Origin: Escherichia phage vB_EcoS_HSE2 | Length of the DNA stretch: 41,317 nt | Strand: one strand, 5' to 3' | Sequence record: MG252615.1 | Shown: positions 3,314-41,317 of the stretch, piece by piece | Numbering within the stretch: the first letter of the stretch is position 1 | Layout of the letters: the number at the start of each line of letters is the position of its first letter | Translations under genes and position numbers: made by a program | The notes under the pieces: generated by a model | What the model saw: the letters and a program-made list of their open reading frames with translations, nothing else | What the model was told of the DNA's origin: nothing | Databases searched by the model: none

Positions 3314-3360
3314 TTTAGCTCAAGCGGAATGGCATCAAGTTGCTGGATAAGAACTATTTA

Positions 3361-3387
3361 AAACTAAGGCCCCGAACGGGGCCTTTT
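3361..3387. terminator. Bidirectional rho-independent terminator at the convergent junction of tailspike and early operon
   Basis: Stem AAGGCCCC/GGGGCCTT with 4-nt loop, T-run after and A-run before. Confidence 0.7.
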
Positions 3388-3526
3388 CTCTACTCTTCGG
3401 ATAACTTCTCCAGTACAAACGCCAGTTGCGCATTAGCGGCATCTCTCTGTTGCCGTAGTCGTAGAACCTCCTCCTCAAGTTCCTTGATACGTTTTTGCAA
3501 TGCCGGAATCGGGGCTATGATGTTCA

Positions 3527-5366: not shown

Positions 5367-5651
5367 CTAACTATAATAGCTCGCTATTAGGGTGTCAACC
5401 TGTTTAAACGAACCGACGACAAAAACATTCGCACCACGTTTACGCATCCGCTCGTGCTCGCGTAACTGGTGCGGGTCAGGCTTCGTGTTTTCGTCTTTCT
5501 TAACCTCGACGAACCAGACGATGCCGCCTGGGAGAATTGCCAGCAGGTCGGGGGCGCCGGAACGTCCTTCGTAGGAGAGCTTACGAACGAGGCCGCCAAT
5601 GGCCTCGAATCGCTCTTTTGCGTATTTCTGAATCTTGCCTTCCGGGGTCAT
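5367..5651 (-). CDS. VRR-NUC domain nuclease (PD-(D/E)XK fold)
   Basis: GAPDLL...VWFVEVKK motif pattern, about 94 aa. Confidence 0.6.
   Translation of the reverse strand: MTPEGKIQKYAKERFEAIGGLVRKLSYEGRSGAPDLLAILPGGIVWFVEVKKDENTKPDPHQLREHERMRKRGANVFVVGSFKQVDTLIASYYS
5370..5398 (-). promoter_or_regulatory. Sigma70-type early promoter with palindromic operator in spacer
   Basis: Minus strand TTGACA, 17-nt spacer, TATAGT; spacer carries AATAGC-TC-GCTATT (plus-strand 5375..5388). Confidence 0.6.
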
Positions 5652-5810: not shown

Positions 5811-5942
5811 TCATTCCATCACCCACAGATAAATTGCGATGAACATGCCCAATACGGCTGCCATCATGCCGTATTGGCCCTCGTGACAGTAGACACCGGC
5901 AGCAAATCCCGCCAGTACCGCGATAATCAGTTTACTTGGCAT
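5811..5942 (-). CDS. Small hydrophobic membrane protein (43 aa)
   Basis: Hand-translated MPSKLIIAVLAGFAAGVYCHEGQYGMMAAVLGMFIAIYLWVME; GGAGA Shine-Dalgarno; below ORF-track size cutoff. Confidence 0.3.
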   Translation of the reverse strand: MPSKLIIAVLAGFAAGVYCHEGQYGMMAAVLGMFIAIYLWVME

Positions 5943-8136
5943 AACGCTTCATCTCCGCGCCTTCTGCTACAAGAGGGAACCCATCGGCCCACTCCGGCAA
6001 TGCGCACATTAATTTTTCCAGTTCAGCCACCGTATACTCAGGGGTGTCTGGAGTTTCACATACCAGTTCATCGTGTACCGAAAGCACGATTGGATACCCG
6101 CCGCCCTCAACATTAATCATCGCATACGCAAGTAAATCACGGCACAGCGCCTGAACAATGTTTTCGCAGGCTTTGCCGCCGTGTGTGTACAGGGTAGTCC
6201 ATTGGCGGGTTAACTGGTTTTCGCCTTGGTACTTGATTCGCACATTCGTGTTTACCCGTCCGTCTTCGTCTGTTTCCTTTGTCACACTAACACCGATTCC
6301 AGGATACGAGAGGACGCGACCTGACGGCAACTCCATGCATAACCACCAACCAGGAACCTTCCTGCCGGATGAATCAAATTCTACCGTACGCCATATGCGG
6401 ATAGCCCTTCCCCCCTTCCTGCGCAAGTGTGCTCCCGCCCAAAATTCACGACCAGGATTACGAACAGCGGCTAAAATTCCGTCTTTAAGGTCGCGCCAGA
6501 ACGCTACTGTTTCGGGGTGTGACTCGCGCCACATACGCTTGATTGCGTCACATGTGCGCCACACTTTCTTATCAAGAATATACGATGGTCTGTCATCCTT
6601 TTCACCCGGATGCGGCGGTCGCTTTGCTTCCTGAATACGCGCCCACTCATACCCACGTGCGGTAGCGGCCCAGATGTGGTCGGGGAATGTACCGTCCATT
6701 GTTTTTGCCATCTCAATAAGGTCAAGACCTAAGTTTTTAGCGAACGTAACGAACGCTCCGACGCCCCCCTCATAGCCGAGGCCAAGCTCGCAGGCCTTGC
6801 CTATCTGTCTGATTTCCTTGAAGTTTTTCTTAATATCGTCGGGGTCCATGCCGAACATCTTACCTGCGGTTACGCAGTAAATATCCAGCCCTGCACGGAA
6901 CGTATCGAGCGCAGTTTCTTCTCCCGCCAGCCACGCTAAACCACGGCCTTCGACGTTAGAGTAATCGGCGACGACAAACTTATGTCCGGCTTCCGGGATA
7001 ATGCAGCTACGAACCGTAGATGCCGTTAGCTTGGCTACATCAAAACGGCGATGCGCTCGGCCCTTAAGTAACGCTGAAATGCCTTTATCCAGTTCATCAT
7101 CGTGATAGTAACCGCGCGCCAGGTTCTGCGGCTGGAAGCCTTTACCCGCCCATCGCAGAGTACGTTTTGCCCCGCCGTACTGCAAGCAACCGCGGCGTCG
7201 GTCGTCCGATGAGCGGCCTAACAGTAGCGGGTTATATTTCGTTGATGCTGTGGATGCCGCCCCGAGGCGCATTTCGATAATCGTGCGCGCGTCGTCCGGT
7301 AAATCATCGTCGGCCAGCAGGTCATTCAGCGTTGACTTCTGTGCGTTGTGGATTCGGTGCGCAGGAGCCAGTTCACGCAGAATTGGCAGGAAGTCTTTAC
7401 CGGTAAGCGAGCCGCCGTATTTGCGTTGGGCTTCTTCCTGTAACTGCGCTTTGTGTTTCTCCACGGCTTCAATCGCGGCTTCCGCCAGTGCAACGTCAAC
7501 CTTAAACCCGCGGTCATTGATTAACTGGTCCAGTTCCAGTACACGGTCCTCGAACTCAGAGTTACCCCAACGCGGCAGCTTATGGAATACTTCACGCATC
7601 GCAGTGATGTCGCTCACGGCGTACTTGATGAACAGCGCCCACTCGTCCGGGTGTGTTTCAGCGGTGTAGCGGCGGATTTTGTAGTTCTTCGGTGTTGGTT
7701 TAGAGAAACGCTGAATCAGCGCCTTGCCGCGTTTGTCTTTCGCGTTGTCTGCGGACACGCCCAGCACTTCGCACAAGGCATCAAGAGAACCCGGCAGCGC
7801 GTGGCGAAACGCCCAAATCATCGTATCAATAGTGTTGCTTACCGGTATATCGAAGCCCCAGCAGTGTTTCATGATTAGGCGATCGAACATTGAACCGTTG
7901 TGCCACGCCATCTTAATACGGCTGTTTGGCTTCACCAGGCGGCGTAACGCGCGGTGCAAATCTCCAGGCATGTCGCTGCCGTCGGTGCAATCCCATACCT
8001 GCACAGGTTCGTCGTCAAAAGCGTATGTGCAGATAAGCACTTCGGTTGACGGGTGTTCAGCGTAAGCGTAGGAACCGACTTTCTTTAAATCTATGCCGCT
8101 GTAGGTTTCAAAGTCTAAGTAAAGCAATGTGTTCAT
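5932..8136 (-). CDS. DNA polymerase, family A, with N-terminal 3'-5' exonuclease domain
   Basis: Exo motif LDFETYS; polymerase motifs DYSNVEGR (A), KxxxKxxNFGxxYG-like (B), VHDEL (C); ATG at 8136 overlaps upstream stop (ATGA). Confidence 0.85.
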   Translation of the reverse strand: MNTLLYLDFETYSGIDLKKVGSYAYAEHPSTEVLICTYAFDDEPVQVWDCTDGSDMPGDLHRALRRLVKPNSRIKMAWHNGSMFDRLIMKHCWGFDIPVSNTIDTMIWAFRHALPGSLDALCEVLGVSADNAKDKRGKALIQRFSKPTPKNYKIRRYTAETHPDEWALFIKYAVSDITAMREVFHKLPRWGNSEFEDRVLELDQLINDRGFKVDVALAEAAIEAVEKHKAQLQEEAQRKYGGSLTGKDFLPILRELAPAHRIHNAQKSTLNDLLADDDLPDDARTIIEMRLGAASTASTKYNPLLLGRSSDDRRRGCLQYGGAKRTLRWAGKGFQPQNLARGYYHDDELDKGISALLKGRAHRRFDVAKLTASTVRSCIIPEAGHKFVVADYSNVEGRGLAWLAGEETALDTFRAGLDIYCVTAGKMFGMDPDDIKKNFKEIRQIGKACELGLGYEGGVGAFVTFAKNLGLDLIEMAKTMDGTFPDHIWAATARGYEWARIQEAKRPPHPGEKDDRPSYILDKKVWRTCDAIKRMWRESHPETVAFWRDLKDGILAAVRNPGREFWAGAHLRRKGGRAIRIWRTVEFDSSGRKVPGWWLCMELPSGRVLSYPGIGVSVTKETDEDGRVNTNVRIKYQGENQLTRQWTTLYTHGGKACENIVQALCRDLLAYAMINVEGGGYPIVLSVHDELVCETPDTPEYTVAELEKLMCALPEWADGFPLVAEGAEMKRYAK

Positions 8137-8411
8137 AGTCCGTACCACGTCTGATAGTCTGCTTCTGTTAGATGGTCGTCGCGTTCTGGTTTCTTGTTTT
8201 TACCACGTTCTATTATTTCCGCCCGAGTCCGGTCTGGGTCTGTGTCCTCTATTAAGTGTTTATGTTCCTCGCATGCATAGTGTTTATACCAGTCTCGTAC
8301 CTTGTAAGCGGGAGGGTATTTAGTCATCCAAATTGCTCTAACTTTTTTACCTTCTGCCTTGCAAAATTTGCAGTAGGTGACGTGTCTGTATCTCTTAAGT
8401 TCCGCTGCCAT
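8133..8411 (-). CDS. Hypothetical Cys/His-rich protein (92 aa)
   Basis: CKFC and CEEH pairs suggest a zinc-binding fold. Confidence 0.45.
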   Translation of the reverse strand: MAAELKRYRHVTYCKFCKAEGKKVRAIWMTKYPPAYKVRDWYKHYACEEHKHLIEDTDPDRTRAEIIERGKNKKPERDDHLTEADYQTWYGL

Positions 8412-8470: not shown

Positions 8471-9097
8471 TTAGCGGCGGCGACGTTCGCGGCGCGGTGC
8501 TTCATCTTCTTCGTCGTCTTCCAGGTCATTGACGCTTGCAGCGACTTTAGAACCCCCGAACGCTTTACCCTCACCAACGTATTTAATTGCCAGCAGGTTA
8601 ACCCCGAGGACTTTGTATTTCTGGCTGAACCAGATTTCGACGCTTACGTTAGCAACGCAGCCGCTGTAAACCTGTTCGCCTTCAATCTGTTCGCCGTCTA
8701 CGTTGAAGTCCTGTTCTACCTGAGTCTCACCTTTTTTAGAGGTTACAATCAGTGGCTGTTTCTGTGCCTTTGCTTTGAAGTAGAAGCCTTCCGGGAAGTC
8801 TTCAAACGGATTGTCGCGCTCGGCGATGTCTTTAATCGCGCATTTATCCATGTGCTTACCTTCGCCGTAGTTGGACTTCATCCACTTCTCGGCGGCGGCT
8901 GCACCTAATGCTTCTTCAACTACAGCGTAGACTGTGTCGTAGAGCGCATCGATTTGCGCGTGGTCAGACGGCAGGATGATAGTTGCGCTATACTGACCTT
9001 TAGTGATTGAGCCATCATCGTTTTCACGGTCTTTTTCGCGTTCGAATACGTTAACCCAAGCAGTGTTTACTTTACGCAGATTTAATTTCAGTCCCAT
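8471..9097 (-). CDS. Putative ssDNA-binding protein (phage SSB-like, acidic C-terminal region)
   Basis: About 208 aa, acidic stretch DLEDDEEDE near C-terminus, placed inside the replication module; fold not verified. Confidence 0.4.
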   Translation of the reverse strand: MGLKLNLRKVNTAWVNVFEREKDRENDDGSITKGQYSATIILPSDHAQIDALYDTVYAVVEEALGAAAAEKWMKSNYGEGKHMDKCAIKDIAERDNPFEDFPEGFYFKAKAQKQPLIVTSKKGETQVEQDFNVDGEQIEGEQVYSGCVANVSVEIWFSQKYKVLGVNLLAIKYVGEGKAFGGSKVAASVNDLEDDEEDEAPRRERRRR

Positions 9098-9150: not shown

Positions 9151-9179
9151 ACTATAATAGCTTACTATTCAGGTGTCAA
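9151..9179 (-). promoter_or_regulatory. Sigma70-type early promoter with palindromic operator in spacer
   Basis: TTGACA, 17-nt spacer, TATAGT on minus strand; spacer has AATAGC-TT-ACTATT (9156..9169). Confidence 0.6.
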
Positions 9180-9183
9180 CACT

Positions 9184-9675
9184 TTATTTGCCGTGGTTTT
9201 CGTGGAAACCGTACTTAACTTCTGCAGCCTTTCTCGCGGCTATTGCGTCGTCGATAGTTTCGAAACGTCCGAGATGAATTACTCGCTTCTTAACTTTTAT
9301 CTCAGCTCGCCATTTTCCGCGGCTTTTATCAAACCTAACACCCGTCACACCGGACGTGTTGTTGCGAGCTAAAGATAAATTACGGCTGTTCTCTTTTCGG
9401 GTTGTTTTCCTCAAATTAGAAAGAAGATTATTTTCTCGATTATGGTCGATATGGTCTATCTCCTCTCCGGGTTGAAGTTTATTTTCAGGCTTCATCATAT
9501 CCCATATAATTCTATGCGCCTGAAATGTCCTTCCGTGTAAACGGACGCACACATAACCCCAATTACGAACAGCAGCAACTTCGCTCCCGGCGGGCGCGCG
9601 ATTGCTGTTAGTTACGCGCCAATATAACTTACCAGTGTTGGTGTCATACCTAAAATAATCTCCCCATTTAATCAT
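9184..9675 (-). CDS. HNH homing endonuclease with C-terminal AP2 DNA-binding domain
   Basis: HNH motif IDHIDHNRENN...N; AP2-like GVTGVRFDKSRGKWRAEIKV...HLGRFETIDDAIAARKAAEVKYG; ATGA overlap with upstream gene. Confidence 0.75.
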   Translation of the reverse strand: MIKWGDYFRYDTNTGKLYWRVTNSNRAPAGSEVAAVRNWGYVCVRLHGRTFQAHRIIWDMMKPENKLQPGEEIDHIDHNRENNLLSNLRKTTRKENSRNLSLARNNTSGVTGVRFDKSRGKWRAEIKVKKRVIHLGRFETIDDAIAARKAAEVKYGFHENHGK

Positions 9676-10928
9676 TCCAAATCCTCCTCTGTTACCCCTT
9701 TCCACTCAGGTCGTTTGTCGTCTGCTGCGGCGATTGTCGGTCGACCAGGATTACGGATAATGAATTCCGTCAGTTCTTCTTCTGGGATAACTTTCACGGC
9801 TGCTGTAGGGGTAATGATTGACTTAGCCATAACTTTATCTCCAAATTTAGCAATAACTGCCTCTGGGTCCGCCCAGGAGCGATTGCCACCCCGCCCTTCA
9901 ACCAGTTTGTACCCCGGCACTTTCTTACCGGAATGCAACGCAGTAGCCATAGCTTTTTCAACCTTGTCGATGTGCTGGCGCAACAACGGCAACTTCTCAT
10001 ACTCAGCTACTAGTTGCTCCGGCGTAAGCTCAAGTGCAAAGTCGTCCTCCAGTTCTTCCGCCAGCACAGAATTAACCGTCTTTGTACGCGCGGCGCATTG
10101 TTCTGAGAACCGACACCACTGACAACCATCGACCGACGGTTTGAAATCCGACGCTTTAAGGTTCTTCTTACCGCGGAAATAAGCATCAAGCGCTAACAGC
10201 GCGCGTTTCTGTGCGAACTTAGCGAACAGTTCCAGACCTTCAACCGAGATGTCCCACTCCGACGCACCGCCCGCGTATGGCTGGAAGATGACCAGACGAA
10301 CCACGGTGATGTTATAACGTCTCTTGAGTCGGCGATAAACACCAAGAGCGTAAAGCATGAGCTGCTTGTTTTCTTTCGCTTCGACACGATGCCGTCCAGT
10401 TTTCAGGTCGCCGATAATGAGCATGTGCTCGTCGGAGTTAGCCAGTTCCCGCACGGCAACAAGGTCAGCCGTTCCGAACGTCTCAACGCCTTCGTACCCT
10501 GGGTGCAATACCTCAGTAAGATTGACGCGCATTTCCAGCTTGGCGTATGTCGCTACATCGATAATCGCTTTGCAGTAGTCGGTGTACTTTCGCACCTGTT
10601 CAATCATGTCCGCCGTAATCAGTACCGCACCTTTCATCGGGCTGATAAGCGCCTTAATCTGGCCTTTACCCTCATCCAGCACGTAAGTACCGACTTCGCG
10701 CTCTAACGGCAACGCAGTTCCGCGAATATAAGCGTTGAGGTGGACCTCCGCTATTGTGTGGCACGCGGTCCCTGTAACGGCGGATTTACCAGACGTGTTG
10801 GGGATATCTTTTTCGCATGCCAGTGATGCAGCACAACTCAGCCACTTTTTAGCACCTGACGGCGACAGTAAGGCGTGCACGTCATTATTGCCGCCGCGTT
10901 CTTTTAAAATCATGCCCTGTTCTCCCAC
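9672..10928 (-). CDS. PD-(D/E)XK nuclease, Cas4/RecB-like, with 4-Cys cluster
   Basis: DLKTGRH...E.K...QLMLYALG nuclease motifs; N-terminal Cys plus C-terminal CQWCRFSEQC. Confidence 0.6.
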   Translation of the reverse strand: MGEQGMILKERGGNNDVHALLSPSGAKKWLSCAASLACEKDIPNTSGKSAVTGTACHTIAEVHLNAYIRGTALPLEREVGTYVLDEGKGQIKALISPMKGAVLITADMIEQVRKYTDYCKAIIDVATYAKLEMRVNLTEVLHPGYEGVETFGTADLVAVRELANSDEHMLIIGDLKTGRHRVEAKENKQLMLYALGVYRRLKRRYNITVVRLVIFQPYAGGASEWDISVEGLELFAKFAQKRALLALDAYFRGKKNLKASDFKPSVDGCQWCRFSEQCAARTKTVNSVLAEELEDDFALELTPEQLVAEYEKLPLLRQHIDKVEKAMATALHSGKKVPGYKLVEGRGGNRSWADPEAVIAKFGDKVMAKSIITPTAAVKVIPEEELTEFIIRNPGRPTIAAADDKRPEWKGVTEEDLE

Positions 10929-11182
10929 TGGTCAATTAGATGTCTGGTCTGGTGCTGGCAATGCATAGCCCAGCTATACATCGACTCGAAGACATAAAAG
11001 TCAGGTTTTGCGAAAGTCGTGCGCTTAATCTGCGACACGTGACGGCCTATATCTTTAGGCCGCGGTACTTTGCCTAAGTACGCCATCTCTTCCATCTGGT
11101 GCGCACCGGACGGCGCACGCAATAGCCATAGCGCCTCTGTGTTATCCCGCCTGTCTACGGCGCGATAGAGTTGGTAAATCAT
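10910..11182 (-). CDS. Hypothetical protein (90 aa)
   Basis: ORF in early operon. Confidence 0.4.
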   Translation of the reverse strand: MIYQLYRAVDRRDNTEALWLLRAPSGAHQMEEMAYLGKVPRPKDIGRHVSQIKRTTFAKPDFYVFESMYSWAMHCQHQTRHLIDQWENRA

Positions 11183-11225
11183 ATTTCCGACCCTCAGTTA
11201 AAGCGGCCCGAAGGCCGCCAGATAG

Positions 11226-11726
11226 TTATTCTTCTTCGAAATACTTGTTCTTGATCGCCGTCAGGCGTTCCAGGTACTCTGCCAGGTCTTCATCTTTAAT
11301 CGCGGCAATCTTCATCTTCTTACCGGTGAACTCTTCCAGCAGTTCGTCAGAATCGTCGCACGCGGCATCGCTTGGACCTTCGTTAATCGCATCGTCGATA
11401 GCCTGAATCTGGTCCCGAAGAGACTGGTAATCGACTTCTTCTTTCTCTTCTTCCGGCTCTGGCGTAGGCTCCTCTGCTTTAGCTTTACGCGGCTTGCGTT
11501 TAGGCTTCTCGTCTTCCGCCGGTTTAGTGTCGACGATGTTTTCACCTTCGACCGGGATTTCTTTTGTTGCTTCTTCGGTGCACTCGGCTACCGCTTCTTT
11601 GGCATACACTACCGTCTCTACTTCCAGCGGCGCGGCAACCTGAACAACCTGTTTCACACTGTTCGCAGCAATCAGTTCATGCGCAACTACGAAACGTTCC
11701 AGTAATTTCAGAAATTGTTCTAACAT
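11226..11726 (-). CDS. Highly acidic, low-complexity early protein (166 aa), first gene after the early promoter
   Basis: Glu/Asp-rich with PEPEEEKEE and C-terminal FEEE; promoter-proximal position. Confidence 0.5.
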   Translation of the reverse strand: MLEQFLKLLERFVVAHELIAANSVKQVVQVAAPLEVETVVYAKEAVAECTEEATKEIPVEGENIVDTKPAEDEKPKRKPRKAKAEEPTPEPEEEKEEVDYQSLRDQIQAIDDAINEGPSDAACDDSDELLEEFTGKKMKIAAIKDEDLAEYLERLTAIKNKYFEEE

Positions 11727-11757
11727 TTGTTTCTCTCCTCTCGTTTGGTATGGGCTA

Positions 11758-11786
11758 ACTATAATAGCGAACTATTCACATGTCAA
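11758..11786 (-). promoter_or_regulatory. Sigma70-type early promoter with palindromic operator in spacer
   Basis: TTGACA, 17-nt spacer, TATAGT; spacer has AATAGC-GA-ACTATT (11763..11776). Confidence 0.6.
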
Positions 11787-11790
11787 TGGG

Positions 11791-11819
11791 TTTTTCTAAA
11801 ATAATTAATATGGTACTAT
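11791..11819 (+). promoter_or_regulatory. Putative promoter of the XRE regulator gene with operator-like palindrome
   Basis: -10 TACTAT at 11814..11819, weak A/T-rich -35; AATATG-GT-ACTATT at 11807..11820; divergent from the early promoter. Confidence 0.4.
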
Positions 11820-11850
11820 TCGCATATCAACTAACTAAGGAGTAATTGAT

Positions 11851-12066
11851 ATGCAACCCTCTGAACTAGGCATCCGTGTAGAACAACGCCGCAAAGAACT
11901 CGGCATCTCCCAGCGCCGTCTGGCTGTCCTGACCGGCGTTTCCCAGGGCGCAATTAACCAGCTGGCACTTGGGGTAACTCAGGATGTCCGCCCGGCGACG
12001 CTGTTTAAACTGGCGGAAGTGCTGCAAGTAGACGCTAAGTGGCTGGCGTTGGGTGAAGGGGCTTAA
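11851..12066 (+). CDS. XRE-family helix-turn-helix transcriptional regulator (Cro-like, 71 aa)
   Basis: HTH signature ELGISQRRLAVLTGVSQGAINQL; AAGGAG Shine-Dalgarno; lone plus-strand gene inside minus-strand block. Confidence 0.75.
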   Translation: MQPSELGIRVEQRRKELGISQRRLAVLTGVSQGAINQLALGVTQDVRPATLFKLAEVLQVDAKWLALGEGA

Positions 12067-12081
12067 CGCCCCCTTTCTTTT
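12056..12081 (+). terminator. Intrinsic terminator overlapping the XRE stop codon
   Basis: Stem GGGGC/GCCCC with loop TTAAC, followed by TTTCTTTTT. Confidence 0.6.
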
Positions 12082-12084
12082 TAC

Positions 12085-14322
12085 CTATTCCAAATCCTCC
12101 TCTGTCACCACCAGCATTTCATTCGGTTCGTATATTGTCTTCGGCCTTAATCTATCCCCTATTCTTTCGGGTATACGATATGTTCTCGGTACTACTTCGC
12201 CGTTAGCATCGCAACCAAGCATTAGTTCTCCGTCTTTCAGCATTTTATCAAGATGGGTGTTAGTCACAGAAAAGTCACCGGAACGAGCCACTATCTGCTG
12301 CTGAGTAAAACCGCGACCTGTATCATCCGACTGTTGCAGGTCTTCCAGTGCCGAAAGTATTGACTCCTTCCTTACTTCATCCCTGCCGCGTTTAACTTCT
12401 TCCTTTACTTTTTCTTTACCTTTATCAGATAGCCCTTCTTCCCGCTCTTTCTCCTCGTCGGTCTTGAACGGTTCGAAACCCCACGGCATCAGCACAAGTG
12501 CCTTATGCGGCTCAGGAAGGTCCAGGTTTACGATTGTACCGTATTCCTCCGTGCTGCCCAGGAACTCAACCGCGCGGTATTCTTTCGGCGGCGGGGCTTC
12601 ACGGAACTGTACAGACTCAAGCACCATGCCGACGGTTTTCTGTTGAGGCCCGTGCTTAAATTTCGAGTGGTATACGTTTATCTGGCGGTCGGTAGCGCGT
12701 TCGATTGTCAGCTCGACGTCGACACCTGCATACAGTGCCCCGCTGCCACGGGCTTTCTTTCCACCCTTCGGCGTATGGTGGACAACGCCCACCGCGGCTT
12801 TAGTCGCATCACGTACTTCTTTCAGGATGGCGATAACTTTACCCATACCGATTGCCGTGGACGAACTGTTCTCGTCGAACTTATCAATCGTCAGGGCTAG
12901 CGTCTGGTTAAGGGTATCAAACGCGACCACCCCAATTGGCTCATCGCCAGCAGTTTCACGCATTAACTTAATCAGGCTTTTCAGTTTTCCGACTTCGCCC
13001 ATATCGATAACATGTACATAATCTTTACCTTCCTCGCCATATTTAGCCGCTAGCGCATCAATACGTGTACGTGTAGCTGCACCGCCTTCGCCATCGATAT
13101 AGAAATGGTGGCAACGCTGGGTATCCGCCCCTGCAAACCGGTATCCGGCGGCGCTCAGGTACATCATCCCCAGCGTATAGAATGATTTGTACGTACCAGA
13201 TTCACCGACAATATCCCATATGCAATCTGACGGCATGTAACCTTCTACTACGAAATCAGCCTTTACCGGTTCCGGTAGCTCGTCCTCTTCTGAGCCCTCG
13301 TCTTCCAGGTCGTCGAGGCTGCATGAAACAGATTCACGCGCACCCCATCCGATAGCCTCGGCGACTTCACTGAACGGCAGTCCGGTCGCATCACACGCGT
13401 ATTTCCACACTTCTTTCGGGGGCATTCCTTCGGTCGCGGCAATGTCGGTGTCGTGAATCATGGTTACGTTCGGCGCTTCGTATCCCTCGCGCGGGAAACA
13501 TAACAGGAAGTCGTCCGGGCGTGGTGTCGGGTCGCTGTAGTTTTCTGCGTGTTCTGGCGTAGCTGGCATCTTAAGGCCACGCGGCGTCATGATGCCGCCG
13601 TACTCGAATGCCAGTGCTTCAAACGCATCTGTAAACGCGGTGCGCAGTTCTTCCGGTATCTGGTAATCAGATGCGCTGCTGATGTCAACGGCTGGGACGC
13701 CTTCCAGTAACTCATCAGGGTCAATCAGGTCGTTGCGGCGCGACCAGATAACGGTAGCGCCGACAGGAGGCAAGTACATCGGCTGCGAAAGAGTGAACCC
13801 GCTGCGGTCGGCACCCATGCCTTTGAAGAAGTGCTCCAGTAATCCATGGCGAACACGGATGATGTTGCCGCCTTCGACCGGGCGGGCCAGCGGCATGACG
13901 ACGCGAAAGCGCGGGGCTTCGTCTGTGTGTGATGCCGTGGTATAGAGGCACATCGCCCGCCGGCTGCGCTTAACCAGGCGCACAGCTTCCTGATACTCTT
14001 CCAGGGTTGCACTGTCAAAGTCCAGGTACGCCAGCGACGATTTGCTTACAGACGCGTCGCAGCGATAGAAAAAGCCTTTACGCGCTTGCTTAAAGTCACC
14101 TGTTTCCGGGTCTTTTACGGTGCTGTGCGTAGAGTCGCACGCAGCGGTGATGTAACCAGGTGCGGTCTTCGGGTTAATTCCGTCACGGACAGCATCAAGC
14201 GGCTGGATTAAATCTTTCAGGTCGTCCAGCGTTGCCGTGTGTGTGGTTCTGACGTTTATATCCTTTTTCTCGGCCCGCGCGTTGCGACGAGACCACGAGT
14301 AGGATAAAATTACATCGGACAT
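12085..14322 (-). CDS. Primase-helicase (N-terminal primase-like region, C-terminal RecA-like ATPase)
   Basis: 745 aa; Walker A-like GESGTYKS and RecA/DnaB-like core in C-terminal half; replication-module position. Confidence 0.65.
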   Translation of the reverse strand: MSDVILSYSWSRRNARAEKKDINVRTTHTATLDDLKDLIQPLDAVRDGINPKTAPGYITAACDSTHSTVKDPETGDFKQARKGFFYRCDASVSKSSLAYLDFDSATLEEYQEAVRLVKRSRRAMCLYTTASHTDEAPRFRVVMPLARPVEGGNIIRVRHGLLEHFFKGMGADRSGFTLSQPMYLPPVGATVIWSRRNDLIDPDELLEGVPAVDISSASDYQIPEELRTAFTDAFEALAFEYGGIMTPRGLKMPATPEHAENYSDPTPRPDDFLLCFPREGYEAPNVTMIHDTDIAATEGMPPKEVWKYACDATGLPFSEVAEAIGWGARESVSCSLDDLEDEGSEEDELPEPVKADFVVEGYMPSDCIWDIVGESGTYKSFYTLGMMYLSAAGYRFAGADTQRCHHFYIDGEGGAATRTRIDALAAKYGEEGKDYVHVIDMGEVGKLKSLIKLMRETAGDEPIGVVAFDTLNQTLALTIDKFDENSSSTAIGMGKVIAILKEVRDATKAAVGVVHHTPKGGKKARGSGALYAGVDVELTIERATDRQINVYHSKFKHGPQQKTVGMVLESVQFREAPPPKEYRAVEFLGSTEEYGTIVNLDLPEPHKALVLMPWGFEPFKTDEEKEREEGLSDKGKEKVKEEVKRGRDEVRKESILSALEDLQQSDDTGRGFTQQQIVARSGDFSVTNTHLDKMLKDGELMLGCDANGEVVPRTYRIPERIGDRLRPKTIYEPNEMLVVTEEDLE

Positions 14323-14380: not shown

Positions 14381-14614
14381 TTATTCCAGGTCTTCTAAAG
14401 TGGCTGCCATTCCGCGAACTTCTGCAACGGCGCTATATTTCCCGCCAACGTTTTTCACGACACCGGATTTAACCAGCACCTTTAACGACCCCTCAATAAT
14501 GGCGGAACTATAGTACTTAAAATAACTACGACGCAAGTCGATAACGCTGCACGACCCTTTTTTACGCGTCAACGAAACGACCGCCGTAAATACGCGTAAC
14601 TGGAACTCGGTCAT
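14381..14614 (-). CDS. Small winged-helix-like protein (77 aa) ending in TLEDLE
   Basis: ORF between HTH gene and primase; C-terminal motif shared with two other replication proteins. Confidence 0.45.
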   Translation of the reverse strand: MTEFQLRVFTAVVSLTRKKGSCSVIDLRRSYFKYYSSAIIEGSLKVLVKSGVVKNVGGKYSAVAEVRGMAATLEDLE

Positions 14615-26793: not shown

Positions 26794-26820
26794 GACGGCC
26801 TCCTCGGTTCGATAGAATGA

Positions 26821-26849
26821 ATAGTACCCTATTATATTGGGGTGCGCAA
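26821..26849 (-). promoter_or_regulatory. Middle-class promoter driving the lipoprotein cassette
   Basis: Minus strand TTGCGC-ACCCCAATATAATAGGG-TACTAT; 30-nt core identical to the promoter at 35165..35193. Confidence 0.6.
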
Positions 26850-31866: not shown

Positions 31867-33035
31867 ATATGGCTACAACTCCTTTTAAGGGCGCGAATAC
31901 CGCGCAATTCTATGTGGCGGAAGTGACCCCCGGCGTAACACCAAGTAACCCGGTATGGTCGCCGCTGCGTAACACAGGCGGCGTTCCTGCCATCACCCGT
32001 GACACGCTGACCTCCAACGAACTGGACGGCAGCCGCGAAACTACATCCATCCGCACCGGTAACAAGCAGGTTAGCGGTGAATATGCTATTGAGCTTAGCT
32101 CGAAAAGCCAGGATGACTGGCTAGCCGGGGCTTTAGGCTCTACGTGGCAGGCTGGCGTATCTCTGTCAGGGCTATCGATTACCGTCGCACCGGCTGGCAA
32201 GACGTTCACACGCGCTACCGGCAGTTTTATCACTGACGGAGTTGGGGTAGGCGACCTGATTGCGTTTACCGACTTAACAGGCGATAACGCAAAACCATTT
32301 ATTGTTACTGCAGTAACGGATACGGTTGTTACTGGTGCAGGCATCCAACACACCCTGACCACCGGGACAAAAACTAGTAAGGCTAAAACTGGCGACACGT
32401 TGGAAACCGGTAACGCGTGTAAGACGTTCTCTATCCTTACCTGGTACAAAGGCCAGTGCGGCGGTACTGATGCGTACACGTTAACCAAAGGCGTGGAAGT
32501 TTCTGGTTTTACCATCGAACAGGCTGTTAACGCGATGGTAACTGGCAGCTTCCCATTCATCGGTCGCAGTCAGGAGATTCTCACCACGCCGCCGACCGGT
32601 TCCAACTTCTCATCTGTTACTTTTGGTGATGAGCCGTTCTCTTCGGTTGACGTTTCCGTATTCGATGGTTCTACACCGTTGCGTTGCGACAGCCTAACCA
32701 TCACCAACGACAACAGCGCGTCCGCACAGTTCGAACTCGGCAACACTAACGTTGCGTTTGTGGAGCGTAGCCGCGCAGCTAACACCTTTTCCATCTCCGG
32801 TAAGTTGTACGACATGGCGATGATTCAGAAGTTTATCAACGAGCAACAGGTTGAGATTAACTCTATTCTGGCGGGGGTAAACGGGGCTATGTCTTTCAGC
32901 CTGAAACGCGCAGAGCTTACGGCGGTTACGCCAGAAATATCTGGCCCGGAATCAATTACCCAAAGTATAGAAGGGCAGTCCACAGGCAACCAGTATCAGT
33001 CGTCTATCGTAATTCAACGTATTAGTTACGTATAA
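31863..33035 (+). CDS. Major tail (tube) protein
   Basis: 390-aa Thr/Gly/Ser-rich ORF followed by strong terminator; upstream of chaperone and tape-measure genes. Confidence 0.6.
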   Translation: MNMATTPFKGANTAQFYVAEVTPGVTPSNPVWSPLRNTGGVPAITRDTLTSNELDGSRETTSIRTGNKQVSGEYAIELSSKSQDDWLAGALGSTWQAGVSLSGLSITVAPAGKTFTRATGSFITDGVGVGDLIAFTDLTGDNAKPFIVTAVTDTVVTGAGIQHTLTTGTKTSKAKTGDTLETGNACKTFSILTWYKGQCGGTDAYTLTKGVEVSGFTIEQAVNAMVTGSFPFIGRSQEILTTPPTGSNFSSVTFGDEPFSSVDVSVFDGSTPLRCDSLTITNDNSASAQFELGNTNVAFVERSRAANTFSISGKLYDMAMIQKFINEQQVEINSILAGVNGAMSFSLKRAELTAVTPEISGPESITQSIEGQSTGNQYQSSIVIQRISYV

Positions 33036-33062
33036 AACTAAGGCCCCGAAAGGGGCCTTTTC
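33036..33062. terminator. Bidirectional terminator, near-identical to the one at 3361..3387
   Basis: AAGGCCCC-GAAA-GGGGCCTT plus T-run; A-rich upstream. Confidence 0.7.
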
Positions 33063-33293
33063 TCACTCATCAATGTTACTCCTGTATTCTCGTAACTTCT
33101 CCAGGCTTTCAATTGCTTCTGCTAAGTCGGTTCCAGTGTCCTTGTGCCCTCGAAGGCCCATACACAATAGCTTCTTCAATGCGTGCTGTAACGCAGGGTC
33201 GCGGATGTCGAAAGCACGTAGCACATCGTAAACGTCTACAGTCATAGTGCTGCCGTGAGTGTTTGTCATTGTGCGGTTGTATTTTGAAGTCAT
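33063..33293 (-). CDS. Hypothetical protein (76 aa), last gene of leftward cassette
   Basis: ORF track. Confidence 0.4.
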   Translation of the reverse strand: MTSKYNRTMTNTHGSTMTVDVYDVLRAFDIRDPALQHALKKLLCMGLRGHKDTGTDLAEAIESLEKLREYRSNIDE

Positions 33294-33306: not shown

Positions 33307-33777
33307 CTACTCATGGTTTTCATGGAAACCGTATTTACTCTCGGCGGCTTTACGCGCAGCAACCGCTACATCAAAATCGTCGTAAAGCCCTAAATGCACT
33401 TGTTTGTAGTTAACTTTTATAAACGCGCGCCACTTACCCGCGGCTTTGTGGAAACTTACGCCTGTAGCCCCGGATTTATTTATCTTTCGCATAGTTTTAT
33501 TTTTACTGTTCCCTGTATTGTCGGTGGCGCGTAGATTTTCTATTCTATTGTCTAGCCTGTTATGGTTTATGTGGTCTATTTGAGTTTTCCTGTCTAAGTT
33601 GCATTTATTATAAAGACACCATGCTATGCGGTGGACATACACTGTTTTACCACCCATACCGCAGCACAGATAACCTCTTACACCAACCGTACCAACCTCA
33701 GCACCAGTAGATAACCTGGTAACCCTCCCAGTCTCAGGGCAGTATTTAAATTGTTTTGAAACATCAAGATATTTCAT
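33307..33777 (-). CDS. HNH homing endonuclease with AP2 domain (paralog of 9184..9675)
   Basis: HNH motif IDHINHNRLDNRIEN; AP2-like GATGVSFHKAAGKWRAFIKV...AARKAAESKYGFHENHE. Confidence 0.75.
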   Translation of the reverse strand: MKYLDVSKQFKYCPETGRVTRLSTGAEVGTVGVRGYLCCGMGGKTVYVHRIAWCLYNKCNLDRKTQIDHINHNRLDNRIENLRATDNTGNSKNKTMRKINKSGATGVSFHKAAGKWRAFIKVNYKQVHLGLYDDFDVAVAARKAAESKYGFHENHE

Positions 33778-35149: not shown

Positions 35150-35164
35150 TGTTGGTGTAAGTGA

Positions 35165-35193
35165 ATAGTACCCTATTATATTGGGGTGTGCAA
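35165..35193 (-). promoter_or_regulatory. Middle-class promoter driving the Imm/phosphoesterase/HNH cassette
   Basis: Minus strand TTGCAC-ACCCCAATATAATAGGG-TACTAT; transcription start only about 9 nt before the Imm ATG. Confidence 0.6.
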
Positions 35194-39784: not shown

Positions 39785-41317
39785 TCATCCACTACACCCG
39801 CAACGAAGACGGGACATTCACACAAAAACGGCATAACGACTCGCCGCTGAATTTCGTCGTAAACCATATCCCTGATGGTGTGCCGTTCCGCGTTTTCCTC
39901 GAAGAGATAGGGGAGGATAACGACGTAACAGAAGATTTTGACGCATTAAAACAGGACGCCGTTTTTCACGTCCTGGAAGGTGCCGGCGGCGGTGTTATCA
40001 AAGGTGTGATGAAAGTGTTCAGCATAATCCTTAAACCGCTGGCTAAATTACTTACACCGTCAACGAAGGGTGCGTCTAACAATCTCGCTAACCAGCAAGC
40101 AGACTCCCCGAACAACAGTCTGACAGACAGGAATAACAAAGCTCGCCCATACGAGCGAACTTATGACATCTGCGGCCGCGTGCAGACGATACCCAATAAC
40201 CTTATGACCACTTATAAGGTTTTCGATAACGCAGGTCGTATCATCGAGTACGGCTACTATGATGCCGGTCGCGGGTATCTGGATGTTAAAGCAGAAGACA
40301 TCACCGACGGCGACACCAAAGTCCAGGAGATAACCGGAACTTCTGTTGCCGTGTATGCCCCGTACACATCACCCAATAACACAAGCTCCCCGCAAATTCT
40401 TGTCGGCGAACCTATCGGACAAGGGTTGTATATAACAATAGCGTCCAATGAAGTAGATGGTGTGGTTCTAAAAGCACCTAATGACCTGGCTAATAATGTT
40501 GGTAATTCTTCGCGTGCCAGACTTGTGGGGGCAACAGGGACCGTAACGGACCCTACAGGCGACTCGGCTTTTAATACATACATATCCCCGGGGGACCAGG
40601 CCACTTTTACGTGGATACGTCCGGAAGGTGGGGGTAACCTTGACGGAGTCTACACAGTATTAAGTGTGGACGAGTTCCAGATAACGGTAGATGCTTCACC
40701 AAAACTATCTGAGTGGCAGACCTTACCGGACCGCGGCGGCGGAATCCGCGAAGGGTACGTTACGGCAGATAAAGCGGCGACTATTGGCCCGACTGATACA
40801 TATAGCGCTAGCCTGACGGATTGGGTATCCCTTAACCGAATCCCGGTGGAACGTGTAGTTGCTAATTTCGCCGCCGCGAATGGGATGTTTAAGGATGACG
40901 GCAACAAACAAAGCGCATCGGCAACGATAGAAGTTCAGTACCAGCTAATTGGCGACGGCGGGGGTGCTTACGGCCCAATCTACACCAAACAGGGAACTAT
41001 TTCCGGCAGAAGCAGCGATTACACTGGGGTTACTGTCTACGCTGACCTTCCTGTTAAATCTAAGGTACGTGTTCGCTGCCGTCGTGTATCTGGCACTGAC
41101 CGCGACTTCTCCGGAACAGTGTCAGATGAAGTTTCGTACATAAATCTGTACGGGCAGTCTGTTGACCGAACCCCTCATTATGGCAACCGAACGACCGTGC
41201 ATTCCGCGCGCAAGCAGACGCCACGAGCCGCAGAGGTTAAGCAACCTCAGTTGCGCATGGTGGTAACGGAAATGGCGTACAAGTATCTTGGTAACGGTGT
41301 TTTTGACTCCGTAAGAA
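39775..41317 (+). CDS. Tail tip / host-specificity protein (J-like), N-terminal part; continues at 2..1093
   Basis: AGGAG 8 nt before TTG 39775; frame checked codon by codon to the window end with no stop. Confidence 0.6.
   Translation, partial: MAIVIHYTRNEDGTFTQKRHNDSPLNFVVNHIPDGVPFRVFLEEIGEDNDVTEDFDALKQDAVFHVLEGAGGGVIKGVMKVFSIILKPLAKLLTPSTKGASNNLANQQADSPNNSLTDRNNKARPYERTYDICGRVQTIPNNLMTTYKVFDNAGRIIEYGYYDAGRGYLDVKAEDITDGDTKVQEITGTSVAVYAPYTSPNNTSSPQILVGEPIGQGLYITIASNEVDGVVLKAPNDLANNVGNSSRARLVGATGTVTDPTGDSAFNTYISPGDQATFTWIRPEGGGNLDGVYTVLSVDEFQITVDASPKLSEWQTLPDRGGGIREGYVTADKAATIGPTDTYSASLTDWVSLNRIPVERVVANFAAANGMFKDDGNKQSASATIEVQYQLIGDGGGAYGPIYTKQGTISGRSSDYTGVTVYADLPVKSKVRVRCRRVSGTDRDFSGTVSDEVSYINLYGQSVDRTPHYGNRTTVHSARKQTPRAAEVKQPQLRMVVTEMAYKYLGNGVFDSVR
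41247..41317. repeat. Window-end overlap, copy 2 (identical to 1..71)
   Basis: Exact 71-nt identity with window start. Confidence 0.85.

Follow-up and report, generated by a model that had tools for sequence, protein, structure and literature searches.

A shared acidic tail motif in the replication module of Escherichia phage vB_EcoS_HSE2, a probable origin of an exact 19-nucleotide repeat at two gene ends

Introduction

The C-terminal peptide of the E. coli single-stranded DNA-binding protein (SSB), SSB-Ct, and the acidic domain of T4 gp32 are interaction hubs for DNA-metabolism proteins. In phage T7, the tail of gp2.5 contacts partner replication proteins and competes with single-stranded DNA (ssDNA) for one binding surface, and the acidic C-terminal tails of gp4 bind basic patches of gp5 (PMC12593628). 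In the crystal of the Enc34 SSB, a DUF2815 protein, the tail lies in the groove of a neighbouring molecule (PMC5686142). The duf2800-gp2.5-polA module of phages has been described as a unit (PMC8093625). Here we report on the replication module of Escherichia phage vB_EcoS_HSE2 (HSE2; Kagunavirus, Guernseyvirinae), in which a sequence of 19 nucleotides (nt) is repeated exactly at the 3' ends of the genes for a DUF2800 nuclease and a helicase-primase and encodes the acidic tails of both proteins. The stretch studied, called the window below, is the complete genome of 41,317 bp. In the literature on DUF2800/DUF2815, on Guernseyvirinae homing endonucleases and on the T7 tails we found no description of a tail motif shared within the module.

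The locus resembles T7 in that several replisome proteins of one phage have similar short acidic C-terminal segments, and the HSE2 module, too, has a gp2.5-like SSB, a family A DNA polymerase and a helicase-primase. It differs from T7 in that two further proteins have the motif, a RecB/Cas4-like recombination nuclease and a small winged-helix-like protein. Moreover, the copy in the HSE2 SSB is internal and is followed by an acidic run and the sequence PRRERRRR, the second copy in the helicase-primase lies in a linker, and docking in HSE2 is a proposal made from sequence. The likeness to SSB-Ct and T4 gp32 consists in a short acidic-hydrophobic motif by which one binding mode organises many proteins. 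However, there a single tail carrier is met by many readers, whereas HSE2 has several carriers, and several proteins with the same tail would imply competition for a single reader.

The repeat encodes the ends of two replication proteins

The 19-mer ATTCCAAATCCTCCTCTGT is present in exactly two copies in the whole genome, at 9674-9692 and 12087-12105, both read on the minus strand. With up to 2 mismatches allowed, no third copy was found in the genome, and none of 100 dinucleotide shuffles contained a match. We estimate the chance of any exact 19-mer direct repeat in 41 kb at about 0.003. The 19-nt repeat is real, exact and non-random. Its minus-strand reading, ACA GAG GAG GAT TTG GAA T, yields T-E-E-D-L-E plus the first base of a stop codon, and TEEDLE forms the last six residues of both the nuclease (413 amino acids (aa); 9672-10913, minus strand; C-terminus ...DDKRPEWKGVTEEDLE) and the helicase-primase (745 aa; 12085-14322, minus strand; AAA_25 and phrog_3228; C-terminus VVTEEDLE). 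Position and translation thus bear out the original prediction, made from the sequence of the window, that the repeat encodes the TEEDLE tails at both sites.

The first copy comprises the TEEDLE codons and the first stop base of the nuclease gene. It also includes GGAGG (9687-9683) and the A and T (9675-9674) of the start codon ATG (9675-9673) of a free-standing endonuclease gene with HNH_3 and AP2 domain matches (163 aa; 9184-9675, minus strand). The nuclease stop codon TGA (9674-9672) overlaps this ATG, and GGAGG lies 7 nt upstream of it. The claim that the repeat supplies the Shine-Dalgarno (SD) sequence GAGGAGGA and the ATGA-coupled start of the HNH-AP2 gene was therefore correct for site 1. 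The second copy holds the TEEDLE codons and the first base of the helicase-primase stop codon TAG (12087-12085), which abuts the terminator of a convergent helix-turn-helix (HTH) gene. No coupled gene lies behind it, so that site 2 is indeed 'empty' in HSE2, as had been stated of endonuclease genes.

The peptide is kept while the nucleotides vary

The replication module has a third tail of this kind, which the original prediction had missed. A 77-aa open reading frame (ORF; 14381-14614, minus strand; phrog_5169), predicted to be winged-helix-like, ends ATLEDLE, and its codons TTA GAA GAC CTG GAA TAA are unlike the 19-mer, with neither an SD sequence nor a coupled gene. HSE2 therefore has three acidic C-termini: VVTEEDLE in the helicase-primase, GVTEEDLE in the nuclease and ATLEDLE in the 77-aa ORF. 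In a greedy set of 72 ORFs (12,760 aa), [DE]DLE occurs 4 times, all within these three proteins. Three of the 4 are at the extreme C-terminus; the fourth, CSLDDLEDE (around 13298-13320), is in the linker that joins the primase part of the helicase-primase to its helicase part. A second, weaker DNA repeat (8514-8536 and 13298-13320, 87% identity) encodes SLDDLEDE in this linker and SVNDLEDD in the gp2.5-like SSB (Enc34_ssDNA-bd/DUF2815; 208 aa; 8471-9097, minus strand). Both the restriction of [DE]DLE to these proteins and this second repeat had likewise escaped the original prediction. The SSB copy, ...AASVNDLEDDEEDEAPRRERRRR, is internal (...VNDLEDDEEDE) and precedes an acidic run and the basic end PRRERRRR.

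For comparison we drew on 75 IMG/VR loci surrounding homologues of the nuclease (91-44% identity), on three relatives from GenBank and on 42 loci of the helicase-primase. Since a broad search for nuclease homologues gave only relatives with at least 90% identity, the diversity of the tails was sampled by a 50%-representative search. In about 125 loci of related phages, with nucleases as little as 44% identical, the tail is conserved as a peptide but not as a nucleotide sequence. Nuclease tails read V[ST]E[ED]DLE, helicase-primase tails VTEEDLE or TTEGDLE, and tails of the small ORF AT[LP]EDLE. Synonymous variation yields 32 haplotypes of the last seven codons for the nuclease, 23 for the helicase-primase and 8 for the small ORF.

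In Dhillonvirus and in a clade of Klebsiella phages the motif is still present at 44-56% nuclease identity. The nucleases of the distant clades end ...ASDEDLS or ...ATDEDLSNE, and ATDEDLE is the end of an ORF of 62-67 aa that lies between the genes for the SSB and the polymerase. The helicase-primases of these clades are beyond the BLAST threshold and lie divergently on the opposite strand; they were found as opposite-strand ORFs in the nuclease loci, the helicase-primase locus search having reached only Guernseyvirinae. They end ...ASDEDLNS, ...ATDDDLKD or ...ATDDDLAD and also keep the linker copy as C-[TSQ]-D-x-DL. The same motif is thus carried by 3-4 proteins in each of four clades. As judged from these sequences, purifying selection acts on a short peptide that unrelated folds have in common. 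A duplication of the helicase C-terminal domain as the source of the 77-aa ORF was ruled out, as no similarity between the two was detectable.

Nuclease and SSB tails in the wider family

For the wider DUF2800 / gp2.5-like SSB family, 1.84 billion cluster representatives were searched, and a 40-sequence alignment and 80 diverse IMG/VR loci were analysed. DUF2800 proteins generally end in ...DKRPAL, a short linker and DDFxDL, often as ...[DE]DL[IV]-COOH, and the F of DDFxDL is conserved to at least 90% in the 40-sequence alignment. In the 80 loci, the clade-specific ending of the nuclease recurs in the gp2.5-like SSB, whose gene lies immediately downstream. For instance, the nuclease and SSB of locus L121 end ADEFADVTDTGEDLV and EDEFDDIAEGATADDLV, respectively (ADEFADV..EDLV and EDEFDDI..DDLV), both proteins end DFM in L173, and both end DFI in L195. 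When 43 non-redundant loci were compared, nuclease and SSB tails from one genome agreed in 1.07 of the last 4 residues, in contrast to 0.64 for shuffled pairs, and 0 of 10,000 shuffles reached the observed value. From the clade-specific endings and the excess of sharing in same-genome pairs we conclude that the duf2800-gp2.5-polA module in general has a nuclease that mimics the SSB tail.

Codon choice and the probable origin of the repeat

Ahead of an ATGA-coupled gene, the nuclease tail is written ACA GAG GAG GAT TTR GAA TGA. Directly ahead of the SSB promoter it is written AGT GAA GAA GAT TTR GAA TAA, which encodes SEEDLE without an SD sequence. Nuclease tails with GGAGG are followed by a coupled gene in 25 cases and by none in 3, as opposed to 8 coupled and 41 uncoupled tails among those that lack GGAGG (Fisher p = 2e-10, uncorrected for phylogeny). 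The helicase site displays a similar but weaker trend (p = 0.02). Use of the codons that form GAGGAGGA...ATGA goes hand in hand with a translationally coupled gene downstream. In this respect site 1 of HSE2 is like known ATGA translational coupling systems, with which it also has the start-stop overlap and the position of GGAGG in common. It differs from them in that the SD codons also encode a conserved peptide and in that the coupled gene is interchangeable, being an HNH gene, a gene for a small membrane protein or another small ORF.

The SD sequence fixes E-E-D as GAGGAGGAT and ATGA fixes the last Glu as GAA, which leaves only the third positions of Thr, Asp and Leu free. Because most synonymous positions are fixed in this way, the two gene ends are identical in some Kagunavirus genomes, including HSE2. 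Of 49 genomes compared, only 7 have two identical 19-mers. The mean difference between 19-mers is 4.71 nt within a genome and 4.77 nt between genomes, and the choice of the Leu codon is uncorrelated between the two sites. Gene conversion between the copies was ruled out by these equal differences and the uncorrelated Leu codons, and together with the 7 of 49 genomes they indicate that the exact repeat is not conserved. In our assessment the repeat is probably a by-product of two overlapping constraints, peptide and translation initiation, and not a DNA element in itself.

A proposed docking tail and its alternatives

The C-termini of the nuclease, the helicase-primase and the winged-helix-like protein have the form [ST]-x-[DE]-D-L-E, and the SSB and the helicase-primase linker hold internal copies. 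With the T7 tails and the Enc34 SSB tail as precedents, we propose a docking role for [ST]x[DE]DLE, as a short linear motif by which the proteins of the module would bind one common site. The common partner would most likely be the family A polymerase (738 aa; 5932-8148, minus strand; Pfam match), a candidate by analogy to T7 gp5; the OB-fold cleft of the gp2.5-like SSB would be the alternative. At the level of RNA, the tail codons would form the translation-initiation region of an accessory gene in the slot behind each core gene. E-E-D written as GAG GAG GAT would provide the GGAGG of the SD sequence, and GAA followed by TGA the overlapping ATGA start. A shared acidic docking tail like those of T7 gp4 and gp2.5, the codons of which also initiate translation, is the best explanation of the data and one that we hold to be fairly probable.

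Several points weigh against such a docking tail. A C-terminal aromatic residue (Phe in gp2.5 and gp4) is essential in T7, whereas the HSE2 tails end in L-E and have no terminal aromatic residue; in the wider DUF2800/gp2.5 family, the F of DDFxDL is nearly invariant and some tails end DF[MI]. Helicases of the broad metagenomic set have no obvious counterpart of the tail of nuclease and SSB, and the helicase part of the tail story is specific to enterobacterial clades. Neither the Fisher nor the shuffle statistics given above are corrected for phylogeny. Finally, the AlphaFold2 models assign the nuclease residues 401-413 a predicted local distance difference test (pLDDT) score of 82-91, with a one-turn helix at 409-412 instead of disorder, and the tail of the 77-aa ORF a pLDDT of about 78-80, also with a one-turn helix. 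As AlphaFold2 does not predict the tails to be disordered, the motif could be an intramolecular element.

This last point leads to the alternative of a motif that works inside its own protein or labels that protein for turnover, be it as a folded-back, DNA-mimicking autoinhibitory helix, as a structural cap, or as a degradation or regulation tag for a host protease. The confident one-turn helix of the nuclease tail agrees with such a role, as does the known occupation of DNA-binding grooves by the gp2.5 and Enc34 SSB tails. The same ending is found, however, on three unrelated folds (RecB-like nuclease, P-loop helicase-primase and winged helix), the 77-aa ORF showing no recognisable homology to the helicase C-terminus, and the nuclease and SSB tails covary clade by clade, which points to a shared, co-evolving reader. 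To our knowledge, the HSE2 ending does not resemble the known C-terminal tags for ClpX or Lon. We regard an intramolecular or turnover function as unlikely.

Accessory-gene slots behind the nuclease and helicase-primase genes

Each of the two gene ends is a slot in which the accessory genes vary. The nuclease slot is bounded exactly by the stop codon and the -35 hexamer of the promoter ahead of the SSB gene, a sigma-70-like promoter (TTGACA-17-TATAGT; 9151-9179, minus strand) that forms the right-hand boundary of the slot; the HNH gene is located between this promoter and the nuclease stop. The empty slot reads GGAA TAA AGTG TTGACA, and the junction of HNH-less relatives is GGAA TAA AGTGTTGACA. 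Occupied by the HNH gene, the slot reads GGAA TGA TTAAATGG ... GGCAAA TAA AGTG TTGACA. Other occupants are ORFs of 67, 57 and 60 aa and predicted membrane proteins of 52-84 aa.

The helicase-primase slot extends from the stop codon to the terminator of the convergent HTH gene (11851-12066). This terminator, an intrinsic-terminator-like hairpin with a T-run (12058-12082, plus strand), abuts the helicase-primase stop and is the right boundary of the second slot. The empty slot reads GGAA TAG GT AAAAAGAAAGGGG, and one occupied slot reads GGAA TGA GCGG ... GCAA TAA AAAGAAAGGGG. In relatives it holds unrelated ATGA-coupled ORFs of 36, 65, 104, 135 and 191 aa. At least six types of occupant behind the nuclease and at least five behind the helicase-primase are all joined at ...GGAAT/GA, the slash marking the junction. 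The right-hand junctions are a promoter or a terminator and not a second copy of the site, with one exception.

The exception is L015 (7209-7421; IMG/VR 3300045988_026399), in which a 60-aa ORF behind the nuclease ends ...CKKEDLE. A remnant of the uncoupled nuclease allele (aagaagatttagaaTAAagtgttgac) forms the 3' end of the cassette, and for this reason the accessory protein ends in KKEDLE. The cassette is flanked by acagaggaggatttagaaTGA on the left and by the remnant, aagaagatttagaaTAA, on the right. Its interior has no relative among GenBank phages, so that the tail-flanked cassette stands as a single case.

Such slots could be taken to mean that the 19-mer is a portable initiation region or recombination anchor, that is, a DNA/RNA element (SD sequence and ATGA) that travels with cassettes and provides short homology for their insertion, TEEDLE being mere translation. 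In favour of this idea are the many unrelated occupants joined at the same point in both slots and the tail-coding DNA on both sides of the L015 cassette. However, the peptide is kept in the absence of an SD sequence or coupled gene (SEEDLE/TAA alleles, the 77-aa ORF and the divergent helicase-primases), internal copies of the motif exist in the SSB and the helicase linker, the two copies are not homogenised within genomes, and no cassette was matched across the two sites. L015, moreover, is a single case with a cassette that lacks a relative among GenBank phages. A portable element of this kind is rather improbable. Cassette exchange between the two slots was rejected, as no cassette common to both was found. 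An integron-like or short-homology cassette system was likewise rejected, since the same cassette was not found at different sites and the right junctions, apart from that of L015, are not copies of the site. The suggestion of a recombination hotspot applies only weakly: there are variable genes at both sites, and in L015 the tail DNA is duplicated, but the sites have neither a common cassette nor concerted evolution.

Two further observations concern the nuclease slot. A small membrane protein of 52-84 aa, in several cases ending ...KITGWKG or ...KITGVKV, is coupled to the nuclease in L021, L026, L031, L054-L061 and L062-L077. These membrane proteins also occur in the distant clades; they are probably the ancestral occupant of the slot. 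In the Jerseyvirus-like loci L033 and L044, the -35 hexamer TTGACA of the SSB promoter contains the nuclease stop codon TGA; the protein gains one extra residue and its tail reads ...DLEA.

The HNH gene and the question of a homing target

The HNH gene is like the free-standing HNH homing endonucleases of phages in its HNH_3 and AP2 domains, its sporadic occurrence, its position between two core genes and the divergent allele that flanks it. It differs in that nothing links the 19-mer to recognition and in that the helicase site does not directly host an HNH gene in the relatives examined. The gene is rare, being present in 3 of 447 related GenBank records and in HSE2 itself, and is one rare alternative occupant of the nuclease slot. 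HNH paralogs occur at many other positions in relatives. The HNH-bearing genomes (HSE2, SHAK7693 and Ivi) have in common a divergent nuclease block about 120-210 nt upstream of the insertion point (9800-10000 of the window, minus strand; nuclease residues about 343-375), with 62-73% nucleotide identity to HNH-less alleles. The block is common to these genomes even where the SSB alleles differ. It fits homing with co-conversion and is a more likely candidate for the HNH target region than the 19-mer. As a separate observation, HSE2 possesses a second HNH-AP2 paralog at 33313-33750 (minus strand) that is 48% identical to the gene at 9184-9675.

The original prediction interpreted the two 19-mers as a homing-target pair, in which the HNH-AP2 enzyme would recognise the 19-mer, with site 1 occupied and site 2 an empty or ectopic target. 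Some findings are as expected of such a pair: the HNH gene is sporadic and placed exactly at the nuclease stop codon, HNH paralogs are scattered in relatives in the manner of mobile endonuclease genes, and the divergent allele of about 200 nt at the nuclease 3' end of HNH-plus genomes is consistent with co-conversion. However, the 19-mer is identical in HNH-plus genomes (HSE2, L002 and L003, with two copies each) and in the HNH-minus L001. It could therefore be a sufficient target only for an enzyme that tolerates self-cleavage. Only the left half-junction is common to the two sites, the right flanks being different (AAAGTGTTGACA and AGGTAAAAAGAAAGGGG), and the true empty site is the nuclease-SSB junction of HNH-less relatives. 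The identity of the copies is already accounted for by the peptide motif and the SD constraint, and if there is an HNH target in the vicinity, the block upstream of the insertion is the better candidate for it.

Comparison with relatives, which had been proposed as a check, showed the HNH gene to be sporadic at site 1 and never directly behind the helicase-primase. An HNH gene directly behind the helicase-primase tail was found in 0 of 51 relatives, the nearest being a paralog 0.8 kb further on in L047, which argues against site 2 as an HNH target. Relatives without the repeat were to count against the proposed pair, and 42 of 49 lack the exact repeat and yet keep the peptide. A homing-target pair is thus very unlikely to explain the repeat.

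Further features of the module and the genome

The nuclease, assigned by Pfam matches to DUF2800 and to the PD-(D/E)XK (RecB/Cas4-like) nucleases, is identical in sequence to the vB_EcoS_HSE2 protein. Its AlphaFold2 model has a mean pLDDT of 91.9, and the fold matches AdnAB, Cas4, Dna2 and AddB. Sequence searches of the PDB found no solved structure closely related to the nuclease or the helicase-primase. The SSBs of the superclade (window 8471-8560, minus strand; L053-L077) end in an acidic run and then P-R-R-E-R-R-R-R, which in Dhillonvirus and in the clade of Klebsiella phages is expanded to alternating acidic and basic repeats. Such a basic end is unusual, as SSBs of the gp2.5 type normally end acidic.

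The promoter ahead of the SSB gene belongs to a near-identical sigma-70-like block (TTGACA-17-TATAGT with a common spacer) that is present in three minus-strand copies: at 9151-9179, at 11758-11786 ahead of a 166-aa ORF, and at about 5367-5405 downstream of the polymerase gene. The three blocks suggest a phage-specific family of early or middle promoters. An exact direct repeat of 71 nt at the genome ends (1-71 and 41247-41317) represents either terminal redundancy or the assembly overlap of a circularly permuted genome. There are two further pairs of near-identical 32-nt repeats, 3359-3390 / 33033-33064 and 26818-26849 / 35162-35193; one of the pairs is a GC hairpin that is terminator-like and the other resembles the promoter spacer block.

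Implications

Taken further, the docking proposal can be cast as a clade-specific 'tail code'. The nuclease, the SSB and, in enterobacterial phages, the helicase-primase (twice) and the winged-helix protein would carry a co-evolving motif and take turns at a single hub site, either on the polymerase or in the SSB cleft. In Guernseyvirinae, the codons of the motif would also be the ribosome-binding site of interchangeable accessory genes and perhaps occasionally, as in L015, insertion homology. We put this extended form forward tentatively, as somewhat short of an even chance.

As a DNA feature, the 19-nt repeat is ordinary, and an entry as a homing site would be misplaced. More is to be gained from the tail motif, which is shared between proteins and co-evolves: it offers a lead of modest novelty that can be put to the test directly. 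A very common, biochemically unstudied phage module, consisting of the DUF2800 nuclease, the gp2.5-like SSB, PolA and the helicase-primase, appears to be wired by one short motif, and a peptide of 7 residues offers an experimental handle on the assembly of the module. It would extend the idea of the T7 gp4 and gp2.5 tails to a recombination nuclease, and it suggests that the same bases, where a core gene meets an accessory slot, can double as codons of a functional peptide and as a ribosome-binding site.

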